From an uncultured Pseudomonadota bacterium (lineage in GTDB: Bacteria > SAR324 > NAC60-12), in the NCBI GenBank assembly GCA_913020725.1, contig CAJWCD010000016.1, positions 1 through 38,002 of the forward strand: a stretch of 38,002 nt of DNA. Direction: 5' to 3'. This document shows positions 20,222 through 38,001 of the stretch, piece after piece. Below the pieces are notes generated by a model that saw only the letters and a program-made list of their open reading frames with translations, was not told where the DNA came from and made no database searches. Numbering within the stretch: the stretch's first letter is position 1; each line of letters starts with the position of its first letter. A program made the position numbers and the translations under genes.

Positions 20222-20238
20222 CACCCTGACCGTCTCTG

Positions 20239-20305
20239 GTGGGGCGTGTTCTGCGCCCCACACGCCTTTACCAAACTACCAGCCGACAACCTCTGTTCGG
20301 CTTTT
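20239..20305 (+). terminator. Intercistronic stem-loops after the SBP gene (mRNA stabiliser or partial terminator)
   Basis: GTGGGGCG..CGCCCCAC hairpin (20239-20261) and AGCCGA..TCGGCT followed by TTT (20281-20305). Confidence 0.45.
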
Positions 20306-20316
20306 AAGCCTTCAAC

Positions 20317-21333
20317 ATGCACCTCCAACTGGGTTATTTTGTCAAACGGTTGCTGCTGCTGGTGCCACTGCTGGTTGGGCTTTCCCTGCTCACCTTCAGT
20401 ATCGCACGAGTGGTTCCCGGTGATCCGGTGGGGCTTGCTGCTGGCCCGCAAGCAACTCCGGAGATCAAGGAAAAGCTTCGGCAGGCATTCGGCCTCGACC
20501 AACCCCTGCCCCTCCAATACTTCAACTACGTTGCCGGGTTATTCCAAGGCGATTGGGGGGAGTCCCTCTATTCGCGTCGGTCGGTTGCCAATGATCTGAA
20601 AACCTACTTCCCGGCAACCTTGGAACTGACGCTTGCTGCGATCTTGTTCGCCTCGGTGTTGGGAACCGTCTTGGGCGTGTTCGCGGCGTTGTACCGAGAC
20701 CAGTTGCCGGATCATCTGTCGCGGATTGGGGTTCTCTTTTTCGTCAGCTTCCCCCAGTTCTGGTTGGCCATGATCTTCCAACTCGTTTTCGGGTTGCTGC
20801 TGCGCTGGTTTCCGATCGGCAAGCGTTTCGACATTCTGACTCCCCCTCCGGAAACCATCACGGGACTCTACACCCTCGACAGTTTGTTGGTTTGGGATTT
20901 TCAGGCATTTCAGGTCGCGGTGGGACACCTCTTCATTCCGGCCTTGGTGCTGTCGTTTGGGGCACTGGCCAGCATCACCCGGATCACCCGCGCCAACATG
21001 CTGGAAGCGCTGGACAAGGATTATGTGCGGATGGAGCGGGCGCTTGGACTTCCGGAACACCTGATCATCTTCAAGTATGTGCTACGCAACGCCTTCATCG
21101 CCACACTGACGGTGATCACCTTGGAATTCGGTTGGCTGATGGCCGGAGCGGTGTTGGTCGAAACTATCTTTGATTGGCCGGGGCTCGGACTCTATGCGGT
21201 GGAATCTTCGCTGCGGTTGGACTTCCAGCCGATCATGGGCATCACCATCATTTATGGGATGGTCTTCAGCCTCGTCAACATTTTCACGGATCTGGCCTAC
21301 GGGCTGTTGGACCCTCGCATTCGCTATGACTGA
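20317..21333 (+). CDS. Peptide ABC transporter permease (DppB-like)
   Basis: PGDP, FGLDQPL..QY, FPATLEL, EAA-like loop, terminal LDPRIR. Confidence 0.93.
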   Translation: MHLQLGYFVKRLLLLVPLLVGLSLLTFSIARVVPGDPVGLAAGPQATPEIKEKLRQAFGLDQPLPLQYFNYVAGLFQGDWGESLYSRRSVANDLKTYFPATLELTLAAILFASVLGTVLGVFAALYRDQLPDHLSRIGVLFFVSFPQFWLAMIFQLVFGLLLRWFPIGKRFDILTPPPETITGLYTLDSLLVWDFQAFQVAVGHLFIPALVLSFGALASITRITRANMLEALDKDYVRMERALGLPEHLIIFKYVLRNAFIATLTVITLEFGWLMAGAVLVETIFDWPGLGLYAVESSLRLDFQPIMGITIIYGMVFSLVNIFTDLAYGLLDPRIRYD

Positions 21334-22231
21334 AACAAGCTCACTGACTCCGGATTACGAGGAGCAAGCACGTTCGGCACGTTGGGAACATTTTCGTCGG
21401 AGCGTTTACCGTTTTCGCCGCAACGGACTCTCGATGCTTGGTTTGGGGATTCTTGCGGTGGTGGTGATCCTCGCGATTGCGGCTCCGTTCATTGTGCCCT
21501 ATCCGGAAGACGCCACGGGAACCACGCACGTTCTTGAACGCCTCAAGCCTCCGAGTGCCAAACACTATTTTGGAACTGACAAGGTGGGACGTGACGTTTA
21601 CAGCCGTGTGCTGATGGGAACCGGGCTCGCCCTGCAAGTCGGCATCGTCATCATTGTCTTGGCGACCACGATTGGCGTGACCTTGGGAGCGGTTGCGGGG
21701 TACTTTGGTCGCTGGGTGGATGAAATCATTATGCGTGTCACCGACATCTTCTTGACCGTGCCTGCGCTGATTCTGGCCATTGCGATCACGGCAGCGCTAG
21801 GCAAGGGCATCACCAACGTGATGATCGGCATCTCGCTGGTCTGGTGGCCCGGATTCGCACGTCTCACCCGCAGTTTGGTGTTGAGCCTCAAGCAGGAAGC
21901 CTTCGTGGAAGCGGCCAACGGTATCGGCGCCAGCCACGCCCGGATTTTATTCCGGCATATCCTTCCAAACGCACTCTCGCCCATCATCGTGAAGATGAGC
22001 ACGGATTTCGGTTTTGCCGTGCTCACGGCAGCGGCACTTGGTTTCATCGGACTCGGCGCACAGCCGCCAACGCCTGAATGGGGAGCGATGATCAATGACG
22101 GGCGGGGCTATTTCCCCGGCAAATGGTGGATTGCCACCTTTCCGGGAATCGCCATCTTCATCGTGGTGTTCAGTTGGAATCTCTTGGGGGATGGTCTCCG
22201 AGACATCCTCGACCCACGCTCAAGACGCTGA
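21326..22231 (+). CDS. Peptide ABC transporter permease (DppC-like)
   Basis: H.FGTD..GRD, FVEAA..IGAS..RI.FRHILPN, PEWGAMI, LLGDGLRD.LDPR; ATG overlaps the dppB-like stop. Confidence 0.93.
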   Translation: MTETSSLTPDYEEQARSARWEHFRRSVYRFRRNGLSMLGLGILAVVVILAIAAPFIVPYPEDATGTTHVLERLKPPSAKHYFGTDKVGRDVYSRVLMGTGLALQVGIVIIVLATTIGVTLGAVAGYFGRWVDEIIMRVTDIFLTVPALILAIAITAALGKGITNVMIGISLVWWPGFARLTRSLVLSLKQEAFVEAANGIGASHARILFRHILPNALSPIIVKMSTDFGFAVLTAAALGFIGLGAQPPTPEWGAMINDGRGYFPGKWWIATFPGIAIFIVVFSWNLLGDGLRDILDPRSRR

Positions 22232-22245
22232 AGCAAATTTTGGGA

Positions 22246-23265
22246 ATGCTGCTCGATATTCGCAACCTGCATCTTGAATTCCAGACCTTCGACGGGACAT
22301 CGAAAATCCTGGTCGGGGTCAACCTCCAGCTTCAGCGAGGTGACATTCTGGCCTTGGTGGGAGAAACGGGCTGCGGAAAATCCATGACAGCCCTCAGTAT
22401 TCCGCGTTTGATTTCCATGCCTCCGGGCAAGATCACGCAGGGGCAGGTGCTGTTTGAGGGAGAAGACCTTTTGCAGAAACCCCGTTCAGAAATGCGGAAG
22501 TTCCGTGCCAAGCACTTGGGCATGATCTTCCAAGACCCAACCACAAACCTCAACCCCCTCTTCACGATCCGGGAGCAGCTTGTGGATGCGGTTCTTTACC
22601 AGTGCCATGCGGCAGATAAAGTCTCTGGACGCTGGAAAAATTTCCTGCCCTCGGCGCGGCAACTGCGTCAAGACGCTCATGCCCGTGCCGTCGAGTTGAT
22701 GCAGTTGGTCGGCATTCCGGACGGCAAACGACGGCTGGAAGACTACCCGCATCAGTTCTCTGGTGGAATGCGGCAGCGCGTCTTGATTGCCATGGCTCTT
22801 GCCGGGAGTCCAGACCTTTTGATTGCCGATGAACCGACCACCGCACTTGATGTCACCATCCAAGCACAAATCCTGCGTTTGATGGCTGATTTGGTGAAGC
22901 GGTTGGGGCTTTCCGTCTTGCTGATCACCCACAATCTGGGTGTGGTTGCCAAGACCTGTGAAAAGGCAGCGGTGATGTATGCGGGGCGTGTGGTGGAGCA
23001 AGCACCTGTCCGGGAATTGTTTCTCAATCCCAAGCACCCCTACACTCAAGGCTTGCTGCAGGCGGTGCCCACCAAACACACCAACCGGGGCGAGCTTGCG
23101 GGCATTCCCGGTTCGCTCCCCGATCTTGCCAACCCACCCTCCGGATGCCGGTTCCACCCGCGTTGTCCGCACGCCACCGAGATTTGTCGGCAGCAAGTTC
23201 CACCCACTATCACCGTTGGCCCAGAGCATTCCACGAGTTGCCACCTTTATCCGGAAGCGACATGA
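22246..23265 (+). CDS. Peptide ABC transporter ATPase (DppD-like)
   Basis: [26 protein letters not shown], Cys-rich C-terminus (GCRFHPRC). Confidence 0.95.
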
Positions 23266-24251
23266 GCGCCACGACCCCACTGCTTGAGGTCCGCAACCTG
23301 AAGATGCACTTTGCTTCCCGGCAGGGACTGCTGCGCCGTGAGGTCAGCCAGGTCAAGGCCATTGACGATGTGAGCTTCTCCCTTGAGGCGGGCAAAACCT
23401 TGGGGCTGGTTGGGGAATCCGGCTCCGGAAAAACCACGATTGGCAAATGCGTGGTGCGCCTGCTGGAACCAACCGAGGGGGAGATTCTGTTTGAGGGAAA
23501 CAACATCGCCCATCTGTCGCGCAAGGAAATGCAGAGCAAGCGGGCCGAGGTCCAAATGATCTACCAGTCTCCTGCCGCCTCGCTCAACAGCCGCATGACG
23601 ATTGGGCAGATCGTCTCCGAACCGCTCTGGATCCACGAGGGCTTGCGGACCCATGAGGCCAGACACCGAGTCCTCGAACTGTTGCACACCGTGGGACTCA
23701 AGGAGGAACACTACCATCGCTATCCCCACGAGTTCAGCGGGGGTCAACAGCAACGGGTGGGGATTGCGCGGGCCTTGGCCCTCAAGCCGAAGCTGCTGGT
23801 GCTGGACGAACCGACTTCGGCGCTTGATGTGTCAGTGCAGGCGCAGGTGTTGAACCTGCTGCAAGCGTTGCAGGATCAGTTTCAACTCACCTACTTGTTC
23901 ATTTCACACGATCTTGGGGTCGTTAGGTATGTCTGCGATCAGGTGGCGCTGCTCTACCTTGGGAAGCTCGTTGAGGTCGCCGATGTCGAGGCCGTGTTCG
24001 AGAACCCCAAGCACCCCTACACCCAAGCACTCATTTCTGCAATTCCGGAACCGGACCCCGGCGACGAACGCGAGCAGATCCTTCTCAAAGGAGAAACCGC
24101 CGCTGCGAAGCCAGAGCGGGGTTGTGCCTTTGCGCCTCGGTGTCCTGCCGCCAAGCTTGACCAGTGTGCCCGCGTCGAGCCACTGCTGGTTGAGGTCGAA
24201 GGCGGGCACCAAGTCGCCTGCCACCTGTTTTCGGAAACAGAGAGGCGCTAA
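23262..24251 (+). CDS. Peptide ABC transporter ATPase (DppF-like)
   Basis: GESGSGKT, FSGGQQQR, LDEPTSALD; ATGA overlap with the previous gene. Confidence 0.95.
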   Translation: MSATTPLLEVRNLKMHFASRQGLLRREVSQVKAIDDVSFSLEAGKTLGLVGESGSGKTTIGKCVVRLLEPTEGEILFEGNNIAHLSRKEMQSKRAEVQMIYQSPAASLNSRMTIGQIVSEPLWIHEGLRTHEARHRVLELLHTVGLKEEHYHRYPHEFSGGQQQRVGIARALALKPKLLVLDEPTSALDVSVQAQVLNLLQALQDQFQLTYLFISHDLGVVRYVCDQVALLYLGKLVEVADVEAVFENPKHPYTQALISAIPEPDPGDEREQILLKGETAAAKPERGCAFAPRCPAAKLDQCARVEPLLVEVEGGHQVACHLFSETERR

Positions 24252-25327
24252 AGCGGTCGTTCTTCGATGGGGGTGAATTCGATGTCGTAGCCGAAATATT
24301 GCGGTCCCACCAACTTCAAGCCCTCGGAGGTACGCCACTTGGGGTCGCTGGGAATGCCCAAGCCTACCACCCGGAGGCCAAAGCGCAGCGATTCAGTGGT
24401 GACGGGTTCGCCCGTGTCAATGTCCAGCAGAGTGATCAGGTCCGGAGTGGAGACGATGGCTTCTGCGTCCCTGCGTGCAATCAGAAACTCGTTTTGAAAA
24501 TCGATTTCGAAGGTGTGCGCGGAGTAGCGATCAATCCCTTTGAGGGTGGCGGTTCCTCGTGCAAATCCGCCTTCTGTCCGTCGTTCCACATCGGTCACTT
24601 TTGCTTCAAACAACTCAAAGGCTCCAAGCAAAGTGCGAAGGGCTTCCACGGGATTGCGATTGTCTAGACGCGCTTTCCGGAGGGTTTCTCCGATTTTCTT
24701 GCAAAGACTGATCGTGCCGCGGATAAGCGACTGCTTGGCGGTCGCACCATTCATTGAATACAGGGCAATCAACGCGGAGCCGCCCATCTCAACAGTGGCC
24801 GAGCGTGCCAGCCGTTCCGTCCACTTGTTGTCCACGGTGTCCAGCAACACGGAGTTTCCCTTGTCATCGCTCATCACCATCGGAGTCGCCGAAATTCCGT
24901 GCATGGTGAAGGACACCATTTGCAGTTCCGGATAGGCGCGACCCATGCCGTCGCCGTCCACCAACGGGAGGCCCATTTCTGCCGCAACGATAAAGGGGGT
25001 GGTTGAGTTCAAGCCTCCGCATTCCGCGCACATCACCGCAGTGATCGGCTGGCCCATGAACTCTCCGAGCTTGGTGTAGGCCGTCACAATTTCATCCCCC
25101 CGTGGCAACTTCTCCAGCATCACCGTGGGAGCCCCCATCATGGCGGCGCAGGCCACTAGGTCATCATCATTGAGTTCATCCACGTCGATCAGTGCGACGG
25201 GAGCGTTTTTCCGGATGGACTGCATGGCCATCAGCTTGCCGATATAGGGATCCCCGCCGCCACCGGTTCCCATCACGGCTCCACCCACCGCAACATCATG
25301 CATTTGTTCCGCAGTAATCGTTTCCAT
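24248..25327 (-). CDS. DUF917 family protein
   Basis: GTGGGGDP, E.GG.NS, DGDGMGRA.PE, E..GGF..G, QNE and PDLI motifs; GGAGG SD before ATG 25327. Confidence 0.9.
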   Translation of the reverse strand: METITAEQMHDVAVGGAVMGTGGGGDPYIGKLMAMQSIRKNAPVALIDVDELNDDDLVACAAMMGAPTVMLEKLPRGDEIVTAYTKLGEFMGQPITAVMCAECGGLNSTTPFIVAAEMGLPLVDGDGMGRAYPELQMVSFTMHGISATPMVMSDDKGNSVLLDTVDNKWTERLARSATVEMGGSALIALYSMNGATAKQSLIRGTISLCKKIGETLRKARLDNRNPVEALRTLLGAFELFEAKVTDVERRTEGGFARGTATLKGIDRYSAHTFEIDFQNEFLIARRDAEAIVSTPDLITLLDIDTGEPVTTESLRFGLRVVGLGIPSDPKWRTSEGLKLVGPQYFGYDIEFTPIEERPL

Positions 25328-25338
25328 CTGTCCTCCTC

Positions 25339-26418
25339 TCAATTGGCAAGGGGTTGGTAGTTTACGTCCGCATAACCGAAAGCCTTGGGGCCAACCACCT
25401 TGAGCGCGGCCTCCGTCCTCAGCAAGCGGTGGCAGGGAAAGGCCATCACGGCCACGCGCATTCCGTAGCGCAACACCTCGGTCGTGATCGGCTCACCCGA
25501 ATCCACATTCAGCACGATGATCAAATCCGGAACGGAAACCGTCACCGTCCCGTTGCAGCGCAGGATCAGGTTTTCGTTCTGAATGTCGATTTCTGCCAAA
25601 TCGTTGGGATTTTCCAAACTCTCCAGCTTGACCCTTCCGACCGCAAAGCCCCCCTTGAGTTCGCGGCGCACGTCGGTGATCTTTCCCCGGAACTGCAATT
25701 GCCCACCCGCTTCGGTTTGGATCGCGTCCAGAGGATTGCGGTTTTCCTCATTCGCCAAACGGACACAGCGCCCCAAGTTGGTTGCTTGCGTGAGGGTCTC
25801 CGGAATCGCATAGCGTTTGATGAAATCTCCCCGCATCGGTGGATCGGCAAATCCGGCCGCAGCCCCCATGTCCACGGCAATGGTGCGGGCAAAACGCTCC
25901 AGCCAGTACATGTCCTGCACCTTCCGGAAGACCACAACATTACCCTTCTCGTCGGCAATCGCCGCAGGCTGAGGTGAATGACCGTAGATGAAAAAGGTCA
26001 TCATTTGAATTTCAGGAAACGCTCGGCCCATGCCGTCACCATCCACCACCGGAATTCCGGCTTGTGCGGCAGTGATCAAGGGTTCCATGCTGTTGGAACC
26101 ACCGATTTCGGCAGGAATCAGAGCAGAAATCGTCTTGCCGGTTTCTTGCTCAATCGCCTTCAGTGCCTGAAAACACTCGTCGCCCCGCTCGAGCTTCTCG
26201 ATTCCCACCACCGGGGCACCGATACCACCGACACTGACCACAAGATCATCATCTCCCAATGCTTCCAGTGGAATGATCTCAATGTCCTTGCCTTGGCGCA
26301 GCAGTTCCCGGACTCGCAGTTTGCCGATGTAGGGGTTGCCTCCGCCGCCCGTGCCCAGAATCGCAGCACCGACCGCCAAATCATCAAGCTGTTGCTCGTC
26401 CAGTTTACGAGAGGCCAT
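25339..26418 (-). CDS. DUF917 family protein (paralog)
   Basis: GTGGGGNP, EIGGSNS, DGDGMGRAFPE, GGFAVG, QNENL, PDLI. Confidence 0.9.
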   Translation of the reverse strand: MASRKLDEQQLDDLAVGAAILGTGGGGNPYIGKLRVRELLRQGKDIEIIPLEALGDDDLVVSVGGIGAPVVGIEKLERGDECFQALKAIEQETGKTISALIPAEIGGSNSMEPLITAAQAGIPVVDGDGMGRAFPEIQMMTFFIYGHSPQPAAIADEKGNVVVFRKVQDMYWLERFARTIAVDMGAAAGFADPPMRGDFIKRYAIPETLTQATNLGRCVRLANEENRNPLDAIQTEAGGQLQFRGKITDVRRELKGGFAVGRVKLESLENPNDLAEIDIQNENLILRCNGTVTVSVPDLIIVLNVDSGEPITTEVLRYGMRVAVMAFPCHRLLRTEAALKVVGPKAFGYADVNYQPLAN

Positions 26419-27955
26419 CTAAATCCCCCACGGCTTTGACACGAACTCGGGTGGCGTTGCCCGGAAGGTAGGCCAGCGGCACATCTTCGACATCAACAAT
26501 TTCCACCGTGTCTCGTTTCGCTCCGGCTTCGACGGCTTTTTCAATCGCCTCGGCCTTAGCTTCGTTCAAGACCTTGTCACGGGTTTGCTCGGTCAGAGCA
26601 TAGACCCGATCAATTTCTCCGCTGATCTGGGCAATGGCCGCTCCCACGGCATTAGCAACGGCATGGTTTTCTGGACGCTTGACCGGCAAGTCACCGATCT
26701 GATCCTTCACCAAGATGCTGCCCCCGCCCACGACAATGACCGGAATGGGTTCCGGAGAAAGCCGCATGCGCTCGACAACGACTGAAAGCATTTCCTGCAT
26801 TCGTGAAACTGATGCCTCGATCAATTCCGTGGGCAGTCCGGAAACTTTGCTGGCGTCGCCAAAATCCGCCATGCCTGCGGCAATCGCGATGTCCGACGCG
26901 GTCAGGGTGCTGCCTCCAAAAATCAGGGCGTCTTCCGTGAGGCGGTAGCCCACGCTTTGCGGGCCGACCTGAATATCGCTGGCGGTTCCCAGCACATGCG
27001 AACCGCCACCCAAACCGATACTGAAGACATCCGGCATCCGGAAATTGGTGCGCACCCCGCCGATCTCAACGGCCACCCCGGCTTGGCGCGGAAAGCCTTT
27101 TTGCAAGGCCCCCACATCCGTGGTTGTGCCGCCGATGTCAATGACGACCGCATCCTTGAGTCCGGACAGGAAGGCTGCCCCGCGCATGGAGTTGGTGGAA
27201 CCGCTGGCGAAGGTCAGCACCGGAAACCTGCGGGCGAGTGCTTCGCTCATCAAGGTGCCGTCATTTTGAGTCAGGTAAAACGCTGCCGATAAGCCCGCTT
27301 CCGAAAGCGCTTCCTTAAACGCGGTGATGGTGGAATCGCTCAAATCCCGCAAACAGGCGTTCATGATCGTCGCGTTTTCACGCTCCAAGAGACCGACCCG
27401 CCCAATATCGCTGGAAAGGGAAAAATGCGCCTCCGGCAATTCCTTTTCGAGGATGGCTTTGGCCTCTTGTTCCATTTCGGTGTTGACCGGACTGAAGACT
27501 GCCGAGATCGCCACGGCCTTGATGCCCTTTGCTGCGATGTCTCCGGCGATGCGCTTGAGTTCGTCCACATCGATTTCCGAGATTTTTCGTCCGTCAAACT
27601 CGTGTCCTCCGTGGGCCAGCGCGTAGTGATTGCCGACCAAGTCTCGCAAATCCTCCGGCCAGTCCACCATGGGCACCAGCGAGGCGGTCGCTGGCAGTCC
27701 AAGCCGTACCGCTGCTGTTTGTGCCAAGTGGCGACGCTGCACGACGGCGTTCGTAAAATGCGTGGTGCCAATCATCACGGCGTCCACAGTTCCACGATCC
27801 ATCCCGGAGCTTTGTAACACTGTGTTGAGGGCATTCCGAACCCCGGACATCACGTCTGCGGTGGTGGGAGTCTTACAGGACTCCAGAACCTTGGAGTCTT
27901 CCATGAGCACGGCATCCGTGTTGGTGCCTCCCACATCCACGCCTATTCTGAACAT
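26405..27955 (-). CDS. Hydantoinase/oxoprolinase (HyuA-like) family protein
   Basis: IGVDVGGTNTD, GTTHFTNA, ERENATI.NA, DIGGTTTD, GLGGGS, ANAVGAA. Confidence 0.93.
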   Translation of the reverse strand: MFRIGVDVGGTNTDAVLMEDSKVLESCKTPTTADVMSGVRNALNTVLQSSGMDRGTVDAVMIGTTHFTNAVVQRRHLAQTAAVRLGLPATASLVPMVDWPEDLRDLVGNHYALAHGGHEFDGRKISEIDVDELKRIAGDIAAKGIKAVAISAVFSPVNTEMEQEAKAILEKELPEAHFSLSSDIGRVGLLERENATIMNACLRDLSDSTITAFKEALSEAGLSAAFYLTQNDGTLMSEALARRFPVLTFASGSTNSMRGAAFLSGLKDAVVIDIGGTTTDVGALQKGFPRQAGVAVEIGGVRTNFRMPDVFSIGLGGGSHVLGTASDIQVGPQSVGYRLTEDALIFGGSTLTASDIAIAAGMADFGDASKVSGLPTELIEASVSRMQEMLSVVVERMRLSPEPIPVIVVGGGSILVKDQIGDLPVKRPENHAVANAVGAAIAQISGEIDRVYALTEQTRDKVLNEAKAEAIEKAVEAGAKRDTVEIVDVEDVPLAYLPGNATRVRVKAVGDLDGLS

Positions 27956-28622: not shown

Positions 28623-29071
28623 TCACAACAGGTGGGAGTCTACCAGTGCTTCGTGGACTTGGGGATCCTTGCGGGCCAAGGAACGCATCACGATCAGGAG
28701 GCGTTGCAACTCGTCCCACATGCGCTGTTCGCGTTCCTCACGGCGGCGGCGTAGCCACTCTGCAATGAACGGCCCGGCCAGCACACCCATGATCAGAATG
28801 CCCAAAATCGTCTGGATAAACTCAAAGCGCTCGTTCACCTGCTCAAAGCGCTTATCAACTTGCTCAAAACGCAGGACCGTCTCCTTGCGGAACTGGTTCA
28901 TCTCCACTCGGAACTGGTTCATTTCCATTCGGAGTTGCTTCATGTCCACCCGAATCTCCTTGATTTCGGCAAGGATGACCCAAAGCGGTCTTGGGCGTGA
29001 AGTGGCGCCGCCGCAAAGCAAGCCAGTAGCAGGATGGCGAACAACCCTCGTTGCATCGTCGTTTTCTTCAT
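28623..29071 (-). pseudogene. Secreted/membrane-anchored coiled-coil protein with a single -1 frameshift near 28979-28981
   Basis: GGGAG SD then MKKTTMQRGLFAILLLACFAAAPLHAQDRF signal peptide; one extra G joins it to VILAEIKEIR..RFEQVDKRFEQVNERF..TM helix (449+1 = 450 nt). Confidence 0.7.
28821..28950 (-). repeat. 21-nt (heptad) coding tandem repeats
   Basis: R.EMNQF x2 and RFEQV(D/N)(K/E) x2 are visible as 21-nt repeated units. Confidence 0.7.
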
Positions 29072-29188: not shown

Positions 29189-29884
29189 ATGCGCTACCCT
29201 GTGGTTTTTTTTGACGCTGACGACACCCTTTTTGATTTCGAAAAAACGAAGCAAGTGGCGCTGGACGCCCTTTTTGTGGAAGCAGGATTCCCTCGTTCGG
29301 AAGCCCTGACGGCAACCTACGAACGCATCAACCAGCAACTCTGGCAGGAACTTGAGCAGGGGCGGGTGGCTCCAGCCACTCTGAAGGTGGAGCGTTTTGC
29401 AAGGTTTTGCACAGCAACCGGGCTGGCAGGCGATCCGGAATGGCTCAGCACGCGCTACCTTCAGCGCCTTTCACAAGGAACGGACTTGCTGCCGGGAGCC
29501 GAGCAATTGGTGCAGACGCTCCACGGGAGCGTGCGCTTGGCACTGATCACCAACGGACTCCAAGCGGTTCAGCGTCCGCGTTTTGCTCAATCACCGCTTT
29601 GCAAATGCTTCGAGGTGATCGTGGTCTCAGAAGAAGTGGGAATCGCCAAACCCAACCCGGAGATCTTCCGGATCACTTGGGAGCAGATGGGGTGCCCAGA
29701 GCTTTCCGGAATCCTGATGGTCGGTGACAGTTTGGCTTCCGACATCCAAGGCGGTGTCAACTTCGGAATTGCCACTTGCTGGTACAACCCCAACCAACTC
29801 CCGCTACCTGCGGAACCTCGGATTGATCACAACCTCACAGACCTTACAAAATTTCCGGAGTTGGTGTTGGACCGTTCTGTCTGA
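29189..29884 (+). CDS. yjjG: HAD-superfamily noncanonical pyrimidine nucleotidase
   Basis: FFDADDTLFDF, ITNG, SEEVG.AKP, MVGDSL.SDI.GG motifs. Confidence 0.88.
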   Translation: MRYPVVFFDADDTLFDFEKTKQVALDALFVEAGFPRSEALTATYERINQQLWQELEQGRVAPATLKVERFARFCTATGLAGDPEWLSTRYLQRLSQGTDLLPGAEQLVQTLHGSVRLALITNGLQAVQRPRFAQSPLCKCFEVIVVSEEVGIAKPNPEIFRITWEQMGCPELSGILMVGDSLASDIQGGVNFGIATCWYNPNQLPLPAEPRIDHNLTDLTKFPELVLDRSV

Positions 29885-30043
29885 TTGACTCGGTTGCCTC
29901 TGAACCCTCCCGTCAAGAGAACTGGGGGCTCCGGAAAATATCGCTCGCACTGCACCCCTTGTCCTTCTATGATGACGGCTTTCCCAATTCACGGGAATGC
30001 GAATTTTGGCGCTGACCCACACCCAACCAAAGGAGATCTGCAA

Positions 30044-30208
30044 ATGAGTGAATGCCCGCTTTGCGACGCTGAAATCACACTGGACACGGACACGGTCATG
30101 GGGGAACTTCTGGAATGTCCGGACTGCGGGACCGAACTGGAAGTCACCGGACTTGATCCTCTTAAACTGACGGAAGCTCCGGAAACTGAAGAGGACTGGG
30201 GCGAATGA
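30044..30208 (+). CDS. lysW: Amino-group carrier protein LysW/ArgW
   Basis: 54 aa, acidic, two CPxC Zn motifs, terminal EDWGE; AAGGAG SD. Confidence 0.97.
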
Positions 30209-31038
30209 AAATCGGCTTCCTGCATTCCCTGATCCGCAAAGAAGAAAAACTCCTGATCGAAGCCTTCAAGCAACGCGGGGTTGAACTGGTGATGCTTGAT
30301 GATCGCAAGCTGATCTTTGATCTCGAATCCACTTTAGAAGTGGATGTGGTGCTGGAGCGCTGCATCAACCACTCGCGTGCCATGCACGGCTTGCGCTTGC
30401 TGGAAAGCAGTGGTATTCGCTGCATCAACACCTCCGAGGTCTCGCGGGTTTGCGGCGACAAGATGCTCTCCTCGCTGGCTCTCAAGGAAGCAGGAGTGCC
30501 TCAGCCGCCGCTGCGCATTGCGTTCACCGAGAAATCGGCCTTGGTGGCCATCGAGGAGTTGGGCTACCCCGTGGTTCTCAAACCTGCTGTGGGGTCGTGG
30601 GGACGGTTGCTGTCCAAGGTGAACGACCGCGAAGCCGCAGAGTCGCTGCTTGAACACAAAGCCATTTTGGGAAGCTACCACCACTCTATCTTTTACATCC
30701 AGAAATATGTGGAAAAGCAAGGGCGGGACATCCGCAGTTTTGTGGTGGGAGACGAATGCATCGCCGCCATTTACCGGACCTCTCCCCACTGGATCACCAA
30801 CACAGCGCGTGGTGCGGTTGCCAGTGGATGCCCCGTGACCGATGAGATCCGCACGGTTTCGCTGGCGGCGGCCAACGCAGTTGGTGGGGGGGTTCTGGCG
30901 GTGGATTTGTTTGAAACCGCGGACGGCGTGTTGGTGAACGAAGTCAACTACACGATGGAATTCCGCAACAGCATTGAAACCACCGGAGTGAACATTCCTG
31001 CACACATGGTGGACTACGTTCTGGAGAACACGCCATGA
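30205..31038 (+). CDS. lysX: LysW-AAA/glutamate ligase (ATP-grasp, RimK family)
   Basis: [43 protein letters not shown] overlap with lysW. Confidence 0.95.
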
Positions 31039-32060
31039 TCCGGGTTTCCATTGTCGGGGGTTCCGGTTACACCGGAGGCGAGTTGCTGCGGTTGTTGCTG
31101 TTTCATCCGGAATGCGAAGTCCAGCAGATTACCTCGGAACGTTTTTCCGGGAAATTCGTCCACAACGCCCACCCCAATCTGCGCGGGGCGACCCGCCTGA
31201 AATACTGCGCCGTCAACGAGCTGGAACCGTGCGATCTGCTGTTCCTCTGCCTGCCGCATGGCCGGACCATGACGGCGGTGGATCGCTTTGAGAAACTGGC
31301 ACCACGGCTGATTGACCTGAGCGCGGATTTCCGGCTGACCGACCCGAAACAGCACCAGCGCTGGTACGGCACCGAACACACACGGCCTGACCTGTTGGGG
31401 GCTTTTGCCTACGGGATTCCGGAAATCAACCGAGAGGCAATCCAGTCGGCGACTCGCGTTGCCTGTGCGGGTTGCAACGCCACGGTCAGCACGCTGGCGG
31501 TGCGACCGTTCACGCGACGCGACTTGGTGGAATCCATTGTGATCGAGGTCAAGGCCGGGTCCAGCGAAGGAGGCAATGCGTCCAGCGGCGCCAGCCACCA
31601 TCCGGAACGCAGCGGCGCGGTGCGCTCCTACCGTCCCACCGGGCATCGGCATGTCGGGGAGTTGCAGCAGTCGCTAGGTGAGGTGCCGATCCACTTTTCC
31701 GCGACCTCGATTGAAATGGTGCGGGGCATCCTTGCCACCTGTCATGTGTTTCTGAAGAAACCGCTGGAAGAGAAAGCGGTGTGGAAAATCTTCCGGGAGG
31801 ACTACCGGGACGAGCCGTTTGTGCGCCTCGTCAAGGAGCGCAGCGGCATCCACCGCTACCCGGACCCCAAGCTGCTGGCAGGCACAAACTACTGCGACAT
31901 CGGCTTTGAACGTGATCCGCACTCCAACCGACTGGTGGTGCTGAGCGCCATTGATAACCTGATGAAGGGAGCGGCGGGGCAGGCCGTGCAGTGCCTCAAT
32001 CTCATGCACAGTTTTGACGAAACCTTCGGGCTGACGTTTCCCGGCCTGCACCCAATCTGA
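31035..32060 (+). CDS. lysY: LysW-gamma-aminoadipyl/glutamyl-phosphate reductase (ArgC family)
   Basis: [22 protein letters not shown] catalytic Cys, [18 protein letters not shown]; located in the lysW operon. Confidence 0.92.
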
Positions 32061-32067
32061 CGCACCC

Positions 32068-32703
32068 ATGTGCCGCATCCTCTGGGTTCGCGCCGAGCGT
32101 CCGTTTCAAATGGCCGCACATCTGGAACGGTTTGCGGACGTATCCAAGAACAGTTCCGAATATCAGGGACACGGTTGGGGGTGCGCTTGGCTGGACGGCG
32201 GCGAGTGGCGCCTTCACCACAACCTCCAACCCGTTTGGGACGAGGACTTTTCGCAGTTTGGCGCCACGACGCTGTTGCTGGCTCACGCGCGCAGCGCGTT
32301 CAGGGACGAGGGCATCCGGGTGGAGAACAACATGCCGTTCTGCGACGGCAAACGCGTGTTTATTTTCAATGGAGAGCTGCAAGGTGTGCGGATCAAGGAG
32401 GAGGGCCGCATTGGGGCGGAAAAGATTTTCAACTACATCAAACGCTTCGATCACCACAACCTCCAATCCGGATTGGAAAAAAGCGTCAAAGTGATCGAAA
32501 AAAGAACCCGCTACATCCGTGCCATGAACTTGATCCTTGCCAGCCGTGAATCCTCCGAATTGGCCACGCTTTACAACGAAAGGCCCGACTACTTCCAGAT
32601 GCACCGAATTGAGCGCGATGGAGTTGCGCTGGTCTGCTCCGCTCCCTATCCGGGAGAAGATGACTGGCAACTGATCCGCAACCACACCATCCAAACCCTC
32701 TGA
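32068..32703 (+). CDS. Class-II glutamine amidotransferase-fold (Ntn) hydrolase, EgtC/Dug3/YafJ-like
   Basis: Met-Cys N-terminus (MCRI), GWG, LAHARSA, N.MPF, FNG. Confidence 0.85.
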   Translation: MCRILWVRAERPFQMAAHLERFADVSKNSSEYQGHGWGCAWLDGGEWRLHHNLQPVWDEDFSQFGATTLLLAHARSAFRDEGIRVENNMPFCDGKRVFIFNGELQGVRIKEEGRIGAEKIFNYIKRFDHHNLQSGLEKSVKVIEKRTRYIRAMNLILASRESSELATLYNERPDYFQMHRIERDGVALVCSAPYPGEDDWQLIRNHTIQTL

Positions 32704-32717
32704 AGCGAATCCCCTTC

Positions 32718-33509
32718 ATGCACCTCATCAAAGTCGGCGGCGGAGCCGAAATCAACCTCTCCGGAATCGTTGCCGATCTCGCCGAACTGGACACGCCCTT
32801 TGTGGTGGTGCTGGGCGCGAACGCCTTGCGGGACGAAATAGGGCAGAAGCTGGGGCTGGAAAAGCAGGAACTGACCTCGGTTTCCGGCTACAAAAGCGTC
32901 TATTCCGACGAATCTGCGATTGACTTGATCATGATGACCTATGCGGGTCTGCGCAACCGTCGATTTGTCGAACTCTGCCAGCGGCACGGGATCAACGCCG
33001 TGGGCCTGACCGGCCTCGACGGACGCATGGTTCAAGGCCAACGGAACCGGGGGATTCGGGTCCGGGAAGGTGGCAAGACTTTGATGAAACATGATTTTTC
33101 CGGGAAACCCAAGTCCGCCAACACGGACTTGCTCAGGCTGCTACTGGAGCAGGGCTATCGTCCTGTCCTCAGTATCCCCATCGTGGACGAGCAGGGCTTT
33201 GCCATCAACTCCGAGAACGACGACATCGTCAATGTCTTGCAGAAAAGCCTTCATGCCGAAAAAATCCTTCAGTTGATCGAGGCTCCCGGGTTTCTCGACC
33301 AGCGGGACGATCCGGAAAGCGTGGTGCGGCAGATGACGCAGCACGAACTGGAGGCGCGGGAAAACCAAGTGGAGGGCCGCATGAAACGCAAAATGCTGGC
33401 GCTGCGCCGCTTGTTCGATGCCGGAGCAGCAGAAGTCGTGATTGCGGATGGACGAAACGAACACCCCGTGCGGGATGCACTTGCCGGACAAGGAACCCTC
33501 ATCCGATGA
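32718..33509 (+). CDS. lysZ: LysW-aminoadipate/glutamate kinase (ArgB family)
   Basis: IKVGG, SVSGY.SVYSD, GLTGLDG, G.MKRK; located in the lysW operon. Confidence 0.92.
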   Translation: MHLIKVGGGAEINLSGIVADLAELDTPFVVVLGANALRDEIGQKLGLEKQELTSVSGYKSVYSDESAIDLIMMTYAGLRNRRFVELCQRHGINAVGLTGLDGRMVQGQRNRGIRVREGGKTLMKHDFSGKPKSANTDLLRLLLEQGYRPVLSIPIVDEQGFAINSENDDIVNVLQKSLHAEKILQLIEAPGFLDQRDDPESVVRQMTQHELEARENQVEGRMKRKMLALRRLFDAGAAEVVIADGRNEHPVRDALAGQGTLIR

Positions 33510-34654
33510 ACATTCAGGAACGAGAAGAACGCCACGCTCTGGAGGTTTACCCTCGGCGAGGGGTCAGCATCGTGCGTGGAGCAGGAGCCACGCTCTGGGA
33601 TGATCAGGGGAACGCATACCTTGACTGCGCTTCCGGGGTCGGGGTGGCCAGTGTCGGCCATGCGAACCCTGCGGTGGCTCAGGCGTTGGCCGAGCAGGCA
33701 CAAACGCTGGTGACCTGTCCGGGCATCTTCTACAACGACCAGCGCGGACAACTGATGGAAACGCTGGTCGGCCTTGCTCCGGACGGCTTGAACCGCGTCT
33801 TCCTCTGCAACTCCGGAACAGAAAGCACAGAAGCCGCCCTCAAGTTTGCCCACAAAACCACGGGCCGCAGCGGGGTGGTGGCGGCCATGCGCGGATTCCA
33901 CGGACGCACGCTGGGCGCCCTCAGTGCCACTTTCAAGTACCGCGATGCCTTCGAACCGCTGCTGTCCGGATGTCAGTTTGTGCCGCTCAACAAGCTCGAA
34001 AAGCTGGACGCGGCCATCACGGAGGACACGGCGGCGGTGTTGCTGGAACCCATTCAGGGCGAAGGCGGGGTGCGGCCTGCGCATGTCGAGTTCCTCTCTG
34101 CCGCACGGCAGTTGTGTGATGAACGCGGGGCGATGCTGGTCATTGACGAAGTGCAAACCGGGTTTTGCCGAACCGGAACCTTCTTCGCTTGCGAAGCCCT
34201 CAACCTTGTTCCGGACTTGCTGTGTCTCGCCAAGGGCATCGCCGGAGGCGTGCCGATGGGGGCGGTGCTCTGCTCGGATAAGATTGATGTGACCGTTGGG
34301 GTCCACGGCTCCACCTTTGGCGGCAATCCCCTGGCCTGTGCGGCGGCACTGGCGGCCATCGGTTTCATGCAGGAAAACGATCTGGCTGCACAAGCCCGGA
34401 GCAAGGGGGATTACTTCACACGCCACTTTGAAGCGAAGCGGCCAGAGCGGGTGCGAGAGGTGCGGCAGTTTGGCCTGATGATCGGCATTGAACTCAAGGA
34501 AAAGGCCACCCCTTACTTGCAGGCGTTGCTCGCCCAAGGCGTGATCGCGCTTCCCGCAGGTCCAACCGTCATTCGGCTACTCCCTCCACTGGTCATCTCG
34601 GAATCCGAACTCGACACGGTCGTCACCGCCTTGCACACCGCACTTGCAAACTGA
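33506..34654 (+). CDS. lysJ: LysW-aminoadipate/glutamate semialdehyde transaminase (ArgD family)
   Basis: NSGTES.EAALK, FHGRT.GALS, DEVQTGF.RTG, LAKGIAGG, HGSTFGGNP; ATGA overlap with lysZ. Confidence 0.92.
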   Translation: MNIQEREERHALEVYPRRGVSIVRGAGATLWDDQGNAYLDCASGVGVASVGHANPAVAQALAEQAQTLVTCPGIFYNDQRGQLMETLVGLAPDGLNRVFLCNSGTESTEAALKFAHKTTGRSGVVAAMRGFHGRTLGALSATFKYRDAFEPLLSGCQFVPLNKLEKLDAAITEDTAAVLLEPIQGEGGVRPAHVEFLSAARQLCDERGAMLVIDEVQTGFCRTGTFFACEALNLVPDLLCLAKGIAGGVPMGAVLCSDKIDVTVGVHGSTFGGNPLACAAALAAIGFMQENDLAAQARSKGDYFTRHFEAKRPERVREVRQFGLMIGIELKEKATPYLQALLAQGVIALPAGPTVIRLLPPLVISESELDTVVTALHTALAN

Positions 34655-35546
34655 ACCCGCATCCCAAAAATCGGCTGGGCTGGGCGCGGCCAATCTCGCG
34701 TTGCTGGTCGTGCTGGCACTGGGCTGGGGCGCGAACTGGCCAATCCTCAAGATCGGCATTACCGAAGTGTCCCCGTGGGTGTTCCGGTCGCTGACCTTTC
34801 TTCCTTCGGGAATGCTCTTGCTGGCCCTTGCCCGTCTCAACGGCCACCCACTCGCCGTCCCCCGCCCCTTTTGGCCTCCACTGCTGGTGGCCTCGACCCT
34901 CAACATCACGCTCTGGGGAATGCTGGTGCTGTACGGGCTTTCCTTCATGACCGGAGGCCGCGCCGCCATCCTCGCCTTCACCATGCCGGTTTGGGCCAGC
35001 CTCTTTTATGCACTCTTGGTGAAAACGCTGCCAAGCCGTCAGGTGGTCTATGCCCTGATTGCAGGAACCACGGGGGTGTTGCTGCTCTGGTTGGGAGATC
35101 CGGAAACGCAGGCCCGGAATGCGTGGGGGCCGCTCTTGGTGATTGTTGGCGGAGCTATGTGGGGGGCCGGGTCGGCCTATGTCAAACACACAGGATTCCC
35201 GGTTCCCACCTTGGTGCTCACAGGATGGATGCAACTGCTGGGGACGATTCCGGTTGCGCTCATAGCCCTGCTGTGGGACTGGCAAAATATCGGAACTCCG
35301 GGCTGGCCGCAGTACTTCTCCCTGTTTTATAACATCGTGGTCGCCGGGGCGATCATGTACTGGATTTACTTCACCCTGCTCAAGCGACTCACGGTCGCCA
35401 TGTCCACCATCGCCATGTTGGCGGTTCCGGTGGTCGCCGTGATCTCCGATGCTTTCTGGCTCTGGAAATTCCCCCTCTGGATCGACCTCGGCGCACTTGG
35501 GCTGATTGGAGTCGCTGTGGCGCTGGCCCTCAACAAACCTGCTTAG
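34644..35546 (+). CDS. DMT/EamA family transporter
   Basis: About 10 TM helices, WGANWP..K.G, GGRAAIL..TMP.W; start (TTG 34644) overlaps the lysJ end. Confidence 0.88.
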   Translation: MQTEPASQKSAGLGAANLALLVVLALGWGANWPILKIGITEVSPWVFRSLTFLPSGMLLLALARLNGHPLAVPRPFWPPLLVASTLNITLWGMLVLYGLSFMTGGRAAILAFTMPVWASLFYALLVKTLPSRQVVYALIAGTTGVLLLWLGDPETQARNAWGPLLVIVGGAMWGAGSAYVKHTGFPVPTLVLTGWMQLLGTIPVALIALLWDWQNIGTPGWPQYFSLFYNIVVAGAIMYWIYFTLLKRLTVAMSTIAMLAVPVVAVISDAFWLWKFPLWIDLGALGLIGVAVALALNKPA

Positions 35547-35639
35547 AACGCTTCAGACGACACCTCATACGCTTCGGCAAGCCGCAAACGCCCCCGTTCT
35601 TAGTGCTGTGACTGGATCGGAAAGTTACAGTTCCGGGGT

Positions 35640-36188
35640 TCAGGATCCGGTGGTGAAAGAAAACTCATAATCGGAACTCAACTGAGTTCCGGAGCCGTCC
35701 TTGGCGTCTTTGAGCTTACGGCTTCCATCCAAGCTTTCTTTCAAGACTTTGACCTTGTAGGTGGTGTTTGCATCCAGAGCTGAATTCAGGTCAATTGTAA
35801 TGGAACTGCTGCCAATAGTCCCGTTGTCATACAAACAGTTTGAATAACTATCCTTGGAAAGAAGGATTGGCAGATCTTTAATGCTGGATGAACTGTTACA
35901 AGTCACAAATGAATCGGAGCCTACCGTCCAACTAGTTAGCCAGGCGTTACTACTATTAATAAAATAAATGGATTTGTTGAAGTTAACAACAATGCTTGCC
36001 GTGCGACTCACGGAGGTCGAACCATTGTCTGGAGTGGTAGACGAAACCGCCAAAGTGGTCGTGGTGGAACCAGCGTCTTCAATGGATTTGGAATCCAAAC
36101 CACTGCTATCCAGTTTTTGCTGGCCACAGCTACCAATCAGCAGCAGTGCCAACCCCAAGATACATAATCTTAAAACTGCCATTGCCAT
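35640..36188 (-). CDS. Lipoprotein with bacterial Ig-like (Big_5-type) domain
   Basis: Lipobox IGSC, TP..G...VS....I.V.F motif, L..NTTY, terminal FSFTTG. Confidence 0.75.
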   Translation of the reverse strand: MAMAVLRLCILGLALLLIGSCGQQKLDSSGLDSKSIEDAGSTTTTLAVSSTTPDNGSTSVSRTASIVVNFNKSIYFINSSNAWLTSWTVGSDSFVTCNSSSSIKDLPILLSKDSYSNCLYDNGTIGSSSITIDLNSALDANTTYKVKVLKESLDGSRKLKDAKDGSGTQLSSDYEFSFTTGS

Positions 36189-37600
36189 TTCAAATTGAAC
36201 CCACGTGGAGCTTGAGGGGAGGAGAATGCAAGCACACGCGGGGAAAATCGGCTCGCCATGGTGTCCGGAGACTCACTGAACCAGAGGTAGGCTTCCACCC
36301 CCAAAGCCAGCAGGGTGATCGTATCCCAGAGCTGCACTTGGCTCTTGTAGGATTTCATCTTGGATTGGTTGCTCTGATACTCGCTTTTGGTCGCGGCGCT
36401 GGAACTGCTGGCGTAGCTGTCGGCAAGCTCCTGATTTTTCGTGGCGAGGGCATTGAACTGATTGGCGTTGCTCAGTGATTGCAGCAGGGCCACGCCTGCG
36501 ATTCCCAGAGTGACGTAGTGCCAAGTCATATCCCGTTCACTTGCGACCACGGTTTCCGATGGGGCCTCGTCGGGTGCCTCAACCGTGGGCGGAGGTTCCG
36601 GCTCTGCCTCCTTCACAGGTTCCAGCTCTGCCTCCTTCACAGGTTCCGGCTCTGCCTCCTTCACAAGTTTCGGAGTTTTCTTGGGTTGAGGTTCTTGCTT
36701 GGGGGTGAGTGGGATCGGTGTTCCGGCAAGGGACGCATCGGAAGTTTCCTCCACTGTTGCTGTTGCTACAGGTGGTGATTCAGTCACTGTCTTGGGTTTT
36801 GGCTCTGCCTCCTTCACATGTTCTGGCTTGCGCTCCAGCAACTTGAGTTTGAGTCGGGCAAGCTTGACACGGGGACTATCCGGGAACTGCTCAATAAAGA
36901 ACCGGAAGTTTTCCGGGTCATCGGAATCCTCAACCATTGCCCACGCCTCCACATCCAACTGCTTCTCTGGCTGGGGTTCTTCTTTGGAAATCACCGAAGG
37001 TTCCGGTTGAGGAGTCGGCATGGGCAGCACAAAAACAAAATCTCCCTTGTCGAGGTTGGGGTTCCTGATCTTGCCGTACTGCGGATGCTGTGCGTTTCTG
37101 GAGTAGTTCACCACGGTCTTCTGAAGAAACTCCCCAAGCTCGATGGCCGTGATGTAGGCACCGTAGACGAACGGGTCGGCCTTGTCTGTGCTAGGAATCA
37201 GAATCCCCAACTTGGCTAGTCCCTTGCGAGTGTCCTCATCCCAAATCGAGTAGGTGTGCTTCATGAAGTGGAGGTAGCCCGAAATCCGCTTGACATCCAA
37301 GTCAGCCTCATCTGAGAGACTCTCTAGAAGCAGCGTGTCAGGGTAGCGAATTGCGTACAGCATCAGCATCAGTTCTCGCTCGATGTCACTGTGCCAGTTT
37401 CGGTAGCCGTGCCCCATCCACTCGTCGATCATGTCGAACATACCGCTGGTGTAGGGCCGATATATTCGGTACAGCAGTTCCTCGTAGCCATCTGGATTCT
37501 GGCTCTCATGCAGGTGATGAGCCTCAAACAACTCGGGAACTCGCTCGAAGAACGGTCGCAACCGCTCTCTGTCGATGCTGAGCAGGGCGTGTGCCTGCAT
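36170..37600 (-). CDS. Apparently chimeric ORF: unknown N-terminal domain fused to the tail of a caspase(C14)-domain surface protein with Pro/Glu repeats and C-terminal hydrophobic segments
   Basis: ATG 37600 after GGGGTG; ELGEFLQK.V.NYS...QHPQYGKIR.P.LDKGDFVF resembles bacterial metacaspase C-termini; W..V.DS.DP..F..F..QFP.S....LAR motif; no His-Cys caspase core. Confidence 0.55.
   Translation of the reverse strand: MQAHALLSIDRERLRPFFERVPELFEAHHLHESQNPDGYEELLYRIYRPYTSGMFDMIDEWMGHGYRNWHSDIERELMLMLYAIRYPDTLLLESLSDEADLDVKRISGYLHFMKHTYSIWDEDTRKGLAKLGILIPSTDKADPFVYGAYITAIELGEFLQKTVVNYSRNAQHPQYGKIRNPNLDKGDFVFVLPMPTPQPEPSVISKEEPQPEKQLDVEAWAMVEDSDDPENFRFFIEQFPDSPRVKLARLKLKLLERKPEHVKEAEPKPKTVTESPPVATATVEETSDASLAGTPIPLTPKQEPQPKKTPKLVKEAEPEPVKEAELEPVKEAEPEPPPTVEAPDEAPSETVVASERDMTWHYVTLGIAGVALLQSLSNANQFNALATKNQELADSYASSSSAATKSEYQSNQSKMKSYKSQVQLWDTITLLALGVEAYLWFSESPDTMASRFSPRVLAFSSPQAPRGFNLKWQWQF
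36593..36664 (-). repeat. 24-nt tandem repeat x3 encoding VKEAE(P/L)EP
   Basis: aggttcc(g/a)gctctgcctccttcac at 36593, 36617 and 36641; partial copy near 36801-36818. Confidence 0.9.
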
Positions 37601-37617
37601 GATACCACCCCGAAGGA

Positions 37618-38001
37618 TCACTCCTTCCACTCGCGGTACTGAATCCACTCTTCCTTGAAGTATTCTTGGAGAGCGGCCTCATCCTCGTCACCGGGCAGTA
37701 CGGAAGTGAGGTACTGCTCCCACTCCTCGTCACTTCCCTCAAACGGTGTGCCCTGCAGGTCGTGCTTCTTGCCGTGGAACTTGCCCACACTTCGGTTAAA
37801 CTTGTCAGACGGGATGAACAGAGCTGACTGACCCTCCTTCCTGCGGGCGTTGATACGCTCCATCTCAAGGTTGAGTTCGTCGAAGTAGTGAGCCCTGCTT
37901 TCCTCGTTGAGGTGGTCGCGGTCGGCCGGGACGGTCGCCTCACGCTCGTCGTAGCGCCCCTTGATGCCATACACATACGCCCATGTCGCTGAGGTCGACT
38001 C
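37618..38001 (-). CDS. 3' part of a BoxB/PaaA-like diiron aryl-CoA epoxidase subunit (runs off the window)
   Basis: Reading frame is open to the window edge: ESTSATWAYVYGIKGRYDE...P..KFNR.VG.F.G...W...LP...D resembles BoxB-type C-termini. Confidence 0.55.
   Translation of the reverse strand, partial: ESTSATWAYVYGIKGRYDEREATVPADRDHLNEESRAHYFDELNLEMERINARRKEGQSALFIPSDKFNRSVGKFHGKKHDLQGTPFEGSDEEWEQYLTSVLPGDEDEAALQEYFKEEWIQYREWKE

Follow-up and report, generated by a model that had tools for sequence, protein, structure and literature searches.

A gene of an uncultured Pseudomonadota bacterium (GTDB lineage SAR324, NAC60-12), located at positions 32068..32703 of the forward strand and referred to below as X, very probably encodes an amidase that releases lysine from the carrier protein LysW through a cysteine thioester, taking the step of the metallopeptidase LysK. 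X would represent a new enzyme family acting at an established step of the LysW pathway, and its chemistry is likely metal-free.

Organization of the lysW operon

The window, i.e. the whole stretch of 38,002 nucleotides that was analysed, carries on its plus strand the gene order lysW-lysX-lysY-X-lysZ-lysJ, with successive intergenic gaps of -4, -4, +7, +14 and -4 bases. Profile searches identified the carrier LysW (30044..30208; 54 amino acids with the C-terminus EDWGE; TIGR01206, 69 bits, above the cut-off), the ligase LysX (30205..31038; TIGR02144 score 333, above the cut-off), the ArgC-family reductase LysY (31035..32060; TIGR01850 score 377), the [LysW]-aminoadipate kinase LysZ (32718..33509; NF010659 score 230, above the cut-off) and the aminotransferase LysJ (33506..34654), the top match of which is the Thermus LysJ model NF042418 with a score of 448, under its cut-off of 700. 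These matches and the narrow gaps bear out the original prediction of a tightly coupled operon that holds every step of the LysW pathway except LysK. The latter is missing from the window as well as from the source genome (93.3% complete), where the top TIGR01902 score was 41 against a cut-off of 163. The genome-wide search for lysK and M20 genes proposed at that time was carried out and revealed six M20 genes, all of other families (amidohydrolases, hydantoinase/carbamoylase, and ArgE/DapE types).

The product of X is 211 amino acids long, starts with Met-Cys-Arg and is predicted to be a stand-alone Cys-Ntn amidase of the class II amidotransferase fold. It has no attached synthase domain, and no M20 metallopeptidase domain was matched in it in Pfam or NCBIfam. 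The only sequence matches obtained, both sub-threshold, were to GATase_4 (19.6 bits, cut-off 23) and to the EgtC model TIGR03442 (39 bits, cut-off 218.65). The GC content of X (56%) and of the operon (59%) lies near that of the genome (57%), hence composition is uninformative on transfer; X orthologs were found in two of 40 relatives, and the plasmid sequences searched contained no match to X.

The operon is followed by a gene for an EamA-type transporter (34644..35546, plus strand), which overlaps the end of lysJ by 11 bases. Among the best 80 of 568 homolog loci it was seen at one only, the closest one, and the transporter is a local add-on to the operon; that its cargo is aminoadipate or lysine is a guess. 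Immediately 5' of lysW lies a YjjG-family nucleotidase gene (29189-29884), which was found at none of the same 80 loci and is probably a bystander. No Rfam match was obtained in the window, and the region 29700-35700 showed neither a sigma-70 site nor an excess of terminators. Metatranscriptome contigs from four runs cover parts of X, one of them spanning the lysY-X junction; they were not accepted as a sign of expression, because the flanking genes are covered too and the libraries may contain DNA.

Several other features of the window were recorded. On the minus strand, a hydantoinase/oxoprolinase gene followed by two S-Me-THD-like (DUF917-type) genes occupies 24248-27955 and is adjoined by a family-5 ABC transporter (18659-24251). 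The region 839-4675 codes for an MMPL/Patched-type membrane protein of 1278 amino acids with two cNMP-binding domains. Two minus-strand ORFs have no Pfam match: a small one (28623-29054), which combines a hydrophobic segment with short heptad-like repeats in tandem, and one of 492 amino acids (36170-37648), which has a short Pro/Glu-rich repeated stretch and could result from a fusion or a wrong join of frames.

Predicted structure of X

The structure of X was predicted from a 101-sequence alignment (pLDDT 96), and the top structural match of this model was EgtC (Foldseek E 6e-12, TM 0.83; Z 26.0, rmsd 1.7 over 198 residues), followed by the glutaminase domains of GlmS (Z 22) and PurF (overall Z 18-22). 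X is thus predicted to adopt an EgtC-like Cys-Ntn sandwich of the class II amidotransferase type. Together with the length of 211 residues, the model agrees with the original description of a Met-Cys-start, class II amidotransferase-type protein that lacks a synthase domain. Sequence identity to EgtC is 17-20% (18% in the structural alignment). A PDB search with the plain X sequence gave nothing significant, and the family profile matched 3mdn (E 3e-5) and, weakly, EgtC.

The possibility that X simply is EgtC was ruled out, given its 39 bits against the required 218.65 and the fact that 96 of the 101 family members match TIGR03442 only weakly (best E 2e-15). No ergothioneine gene context was seen within the window, X being flanked by LysW-pathway genes. 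A search of longer proteins gave six matches, five of them with LysZ- or LysY-type domains. These X-LysZ and LysY-X fusions (including P0172 and P0234) were discarded as evidence: the clusters for which a size is given have 1-3 members, the genes concerned are abutting or overlapping, and frameshifts seem to underlie most of the fused reads.

Predicted active-site motifs

Motifs were placed by profile alignment of X with GlmS, PurF and YafJ/EgtC-like sequences drawn from genomes, and residue conservation was counted over the 101-member family alignment. Cys2 (32071..32073), the predicted nucleophile exposed at the N-terminus after removal of Met, is present in all 101 members; the model aligns from residue 2, which superposes on residue 2 of EgtC and residue 1 of GlmS. 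In the motif H73-A-R75 (32284..32292), Arg75 (101/101) falls on the Arg of the HTR/HVR motif, which in class II enzymes binds the alpha-carboxylate. The pair N101-G102 (32368..32373; 101/101 and 99/101) corresponds to the Asn-Gly that forms the oxyanion hole in these enzymes and is predicted to do the same in X. The retention of Cys2, the H-x-R Arg and the NG pair, noticed from the single sequence, therefore holds for the family. Invariant as well are R3, W57, G113 and G116, and position 119 is Lys or Arg in every member.

The departures from the canonical motifs proved to be just as consistent. I115-G116-A117-E118, the first four residues of I-G-A-E-K (115-119; 32410..32424), align on T-D-S/T-E of GlmS and of the YafJ/EgtC-like set, with an alignment probability of 99.8 for the YafJ/EgtC-like pair and 99.1 for all together, and weak for GlmS or PurF alone. 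In class II enzymes it is the TD[ST]E motif that supplies, with its Asp, the binding partner of glutamine's free alpha-amine; this Asp, canonical in glutaminases of the GlmS/PurF/YafJ type, is lost in X and replaced by Gly116 in 101/101 members, upstream of the invariant Lys/Arg119. In addition, M89 takes the place of the His in HP[FH], and F100 that of the His in HNG. The substitutions originally read as TDSE to IGAE, HPF to MPF and HNG to FNG were thus recovered, and the alignment with GlmS and EgtC suggested for checking the loss of Asp showed the change to Gly to be real and invariant. Around five outer homologs in which the Asp is retained, the short flanks of about 1.5 kb contain no LysW gene.

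Distribution and genomic linkage

The X family comprises at least 2,903 protein clusters (E≤0.001) and is without its own model in Pfam or NCBIfam. A close set of loci, the best 80 of 568 GTDB stretches with X homologs, includes records from Pseudomonadota, Gemmatimonadota, Calditrichota, KSB1, Ignavibacteriota, Acidobacteriota and Woesearchaeota. At all 80 of these best-matching loci X has at least one LysW-pathway neighbour (lysY at 70, lysZ at 69, lysJ at 66, lysX at 65 and lysW at 59). A distant set, the best 80 of 101 confirmed metagenome loci, represents a branch reached by profile search that is about 25-35% identical to X, its members being 38-56% identical to their query. In 73 of these 80 lysJ is present, nearly always directly upstream of X; in the remaining seven X starts within 142 bases of the contig end. 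Linkage to LysW-pathway genes, co-occurrence with lysW having been named as a test by the original prediction, is accordingly seen in 80/80 close (best 80 of 568) and 73/80 distant loci (best 80 of 101). A LysK query against both sets found no LysK and one weak M20 match.

At five gammaproteobacterial loci (L040, L058, L060, L061 and L063) the operon is split, X staying with lysW/lysX/lysY genes and lysZ lying far off on the chromosome. No named cultured host was found among the best 120 homologs of the protein of locus L080.

Mutual exclusion of X and LysK

For the comparison with LysK, genomes were picked by lysX only (Gemmatimonadota, 12 of 151; Nanoarchaeota, 10 of 301; Acidobacteriota, 33 of 301; Ignavibacteria, 12 of 201). 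After the removal of five genomes previously known to have X and one flagged as unpublished, 61 operons were left. The corresponding genomes, most of which, as in the whole X/LysK comparison, are incomplete assemblies, had X only in 43 cases and LysK only in 18; none had both and none had neither. Forty operons contain X, with LysK above the cut-off in 0/40 of those genomes. Fifteen end in lysJ-lysK, all above the TIGR01902 cut-off, and X occurs in 0/15 of those genomes. The other six are interrupted by contig ends, three X and three LysK genes being found elsewhere in the assembly. The slot directly after lysJ, which is used by the distant X genes, is the position of LysK in 15/15 LysK operons. 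Likewise, LysK above the cut-off was found in 0/50 further X genomes (50 of the 80 of the close set).

The Fisher test of X versus LysK gives p 8e-16, a value that is overstated because it ignores kinship, the data amounting to 1-2 independent swaps. On a tree of LysX plus LysY (60 rows, two loci omitted) the X/LysK label changes two times, and supported branches demand only one of these changes. Nevertheless, across deep divergence no operon lacking lysK was observed without X. The anti-correlation with lysK that had been anticipated is therefore evident in the sampled genomes, and a canonical lysK routinely accompanying X was not seen among them.

The source genome and most X genomes do have other ArgE/DapE-type M20 enzymes, which could in principle carry out lysine release; the LysK of Thermus is described as promiscuous (PMC12998189). 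Archaeal genomes bear on this point. Three woesearchaeal loci (L035, L050 and L190) combine homocitrate-synthase-, homoaconitase- and homoisocitrate-dehydrogenase-like genes with the order W-X-Y-[X]-Z-J, where the bracketed gene is X. Their genomes and two more, a group selected for few or no LysK candidates, have a PF01546 match in 0/5 cases, and in these M20-free archaeal genomes X is the only amidase candidate found. Genomes G013 and G014 have no lysA above the cut-off. Locus L035 also harbours, between homocitrate synthase and homoaconitase, a gene of the muconate-lactonising/enolase family (L035:4395-5429; weak MenC and DgcA matches), which is part of this woesearchaeal LysW operon.

The C-terminus of the carrier

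The LysW of the window ends in Glu, as do the carriers of about two thirds of X operons. Carriers ending in Gln are frequent as well: EDWGQ was found at 17 of 59 close and 11 of 31 distant loci, some of them near-duplicates. In the sample picked by lysX this end occurs in 14/39 X operons versus 0/18 LysK operons (p 0.002, a figure with the same kinship weakness, as there are 1-2 independent X/LysK contrasts). Changes between Glu and Gln number seven on one tree, five of them forced, and ten on another. A carrier with Gln at its end lacks the side-chain carboxyl needed for loading, so the simplest condition under which drift to Gln could recur is an amidase acting at this very position. It is therefore reasonably likely that X also deamidates Gln-ended carriers, as a second job beside lysine release.

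Substrate and role in the source genome

The LysX encoded in the window bears the residues F179-I189-T200-N255-S256. This corresponds to the F-I-T-NS signature of the Thermus aminoadipate type, one of the published five-residue LysX types (PMC12998189), and the same signature occurs in 62 of 64 rows of the close set. Arginine genes lie elsewhere in the source genome (argB, a second argC on contig C30, an argD-like gene, argJ and argG). Because of the aminoadipate signature and the separate argB, argC, argJ and argG, LysW-Lys appears a more likely substrate of X than LysW-Orn, the call between lysine and ornithine being made solely from the five LysX residues. Of the activity originally proposed, hydrolysis of LysW-gamma-Lys or LysW-gamma-Orn, the lysine part is thus favoured, and the ornithine part seems less likely. 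Haloarchaeal ArgW operons are reported to carry argE (PMC10433800).

The source genome also contains lysA and dapB of the DAP route to lysine, and a search of this incomplete genome with one homocitrate synthase protein query returned only CimA- and LeuA-like genes (28-32%). As DAP-lysine and acetyl-arginine genes coexist here and no homocitrate synthase was found, the operon probably makes lysine by salvaging aminoadipate from another source, in parallel with the DAP route. Among the 50 X genomes lysA is present in 41, a homocitrate synthase of the L054 type (≥40% identity) in nine and lysX in 49; in view of the lysA and homocitrate synthase counts, the operon is often dispensable for de novo lysine synthesis.

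Some X operons hold a second lysX paralog (L049:8087-8947, L193:2886-3722, L196:8797-9624, L197:10029-10859 and L198:8081-9040). The five-residue signature of these paralogs fits no published type, and possibly another amino acid is loaded.

Proposed reaction and alternative explanations

We infer the substrate, catalysis, residue roles and physiology of X as follows. X would cut the amide between the side chain of the terminal Glu of the carrier and lysine. After removal of Met, Cys2 would attack the gamma-amide, with Asn101-Gly102 stabilising the oxyanion, and lysine would depart; hydrolysis of the resulting LysW-glutamyl thioester would then yield free LysW. Arg75 may hold the C-terminal carboxylate of the carrier, and Gly116, standing in place of the Asp that pairs with the alpha-amine, may make room for the peptide chain. 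Lys/Arg119 could bind either the acidic tail or the carboxylate of the leaving lysine. By identical chemistry, Gln-ended carriers would be turned into Glu-ended ones that LysX can load.

The same thioester might serve a different end. X could act mainly as a transferase, with aminoadipate capturing the LysW-glutamyl thioester, so that release and reloading become one step and LysX primes only, comparable to what ArgJ does with the acetyl group. Thioester chemistry permits capture by an amine, ArgJ is an Ntn-fold precedent for acetyl-group cycling, and a Gln-ended carrier could be loaded in this way without ATP. However, lysX is kept in nearly all of the 50 X genomes with its signature almost unchanged in the close set, and EgtC, the nearest structure, is described as an enzyme that takes glutamate off a gamma-glutamyl intermediate or amide (PMC5790434). 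A predominantly transferase role is therefore quite improbable. A broader version, in which X is both a gamma-glutamyl transferase and a hydrolase of the carrier, activating Gln-ended LysW and swapping lysine for aminoadipate in a cyclic, ATP-sparing pathway that would be the commoner form in several bacterial and archaeal phyla, is unlikely too, if slightly less so.

It may also be supposed that the role of X is confined to maturing or repairing the carrier, by converting Gln to Glu or removing mis-loaded amino acids, and that lysine is released by an ArgE/DapE-type M20 enzyme encoded outside the operon. The glutaminase-type fold, the frequency of Gln-ended carriers and the generic M20 enzymes of most X genomes would suit such a role. 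Yet X is retained in the operons with Glu-ended carriers, that of the window included, M20 matches are missing from five X genomes, X is absent from all 18 LysK operons and no lysK-less operon of the sample dispenses with X, so that this explanation is very unlikely. Least probable of all is the release of ornithine (ArgW-type use) or of another non-lysine product by an operon serving a non-lysine purpose in DAP-route hosts, since the prevalence of lysA over homocitrate synthase and the deviating second lysX of a few operons are outweighed by the F-I-T-NS signature, the aminoadipate-synthesis genes inside many X operons and the arginine genes (argB, argC, argD-like, argJ, argG) located elsewhere in the source genome.

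Release of lysine from LysW by X remains by far the preferred reading. In the literature searched, which took in only part of the subscription journals, LysK is the sole enzyme named as releasing lysine from its carrier protein, and no report of a Cys-Ntn amidase releasing lysine from LysW was found. A term search of the main text of the GapMind 2026 preprint gave no passage on LysK, EgtC or an amidotransferase. The genome report of Caldithrix abyssi describes LysWXZYJ and Hcs in one locus with LysK absent, and its authors suspect that a non-orthologous displacement has occurred within lysine synthesis (PMC5317091). If the assignment is correct, X could fill this published gap, small archaea without an M20 peptidase could be scored as lysine makers, the tolerance of Gln-ended carriers would be explained, and amino-group carrier proteins could be unloaded with a tool that needs no metal. 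With X in 43 of the 61 lysX genomes from four groups, it may be the commoner last step there.

Comparison with known systems

The glutaminase domains of GlmS and PurF and the stand-alone YafJ/SPO2029-like domains (1xff, 1ecb, 1te5, 3mdn) resemble X in fold (Z 19-22), in the position of the Cys nucleophile and in the Arg and Asn-Gly motifs. X differs from them in having no synthase domain, in the altered Asp and both altered His positions, and in its invariant Lys/Arg119. A parallel to the proposed dual activity is offered by Dop of the Pup system, a single enzyme that deamidates the terminal Gln of a protein and also cleaves the amide later formed there. The fold of Dop is different and the Pup bond is made to a lysine side chain of the target protein; the likeness is confined to the dual activity proposed for X, and no homology is claimed.

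EgtC (PDB 4zfj, 4zfk, 4zfl; TIGR03442) shares with X the stand-alone size, the Met-Cys-Arg start and the fold, and by analogy the reaction proposed for X would likewise cut a gamma-glutamyl amide and deprotect an alpha-amino group. Unlike EgtC, X has Gly for the Asp of TD[ST]E and a LysW gene context, and its glutamyl donor would be a protein terminus. LysK of the M20 family (TIGR01902, NF003367; Thermus thermophilus) has no relation to X in sequence or fold and employs metal-activated water, as opposed to the thioester chemistry predicted for X. Nevertheless, the reaction and substrate proposed for X are those of LysK, the type of operon is the same, and the distant X genes come after lysJ, just as lysK does.
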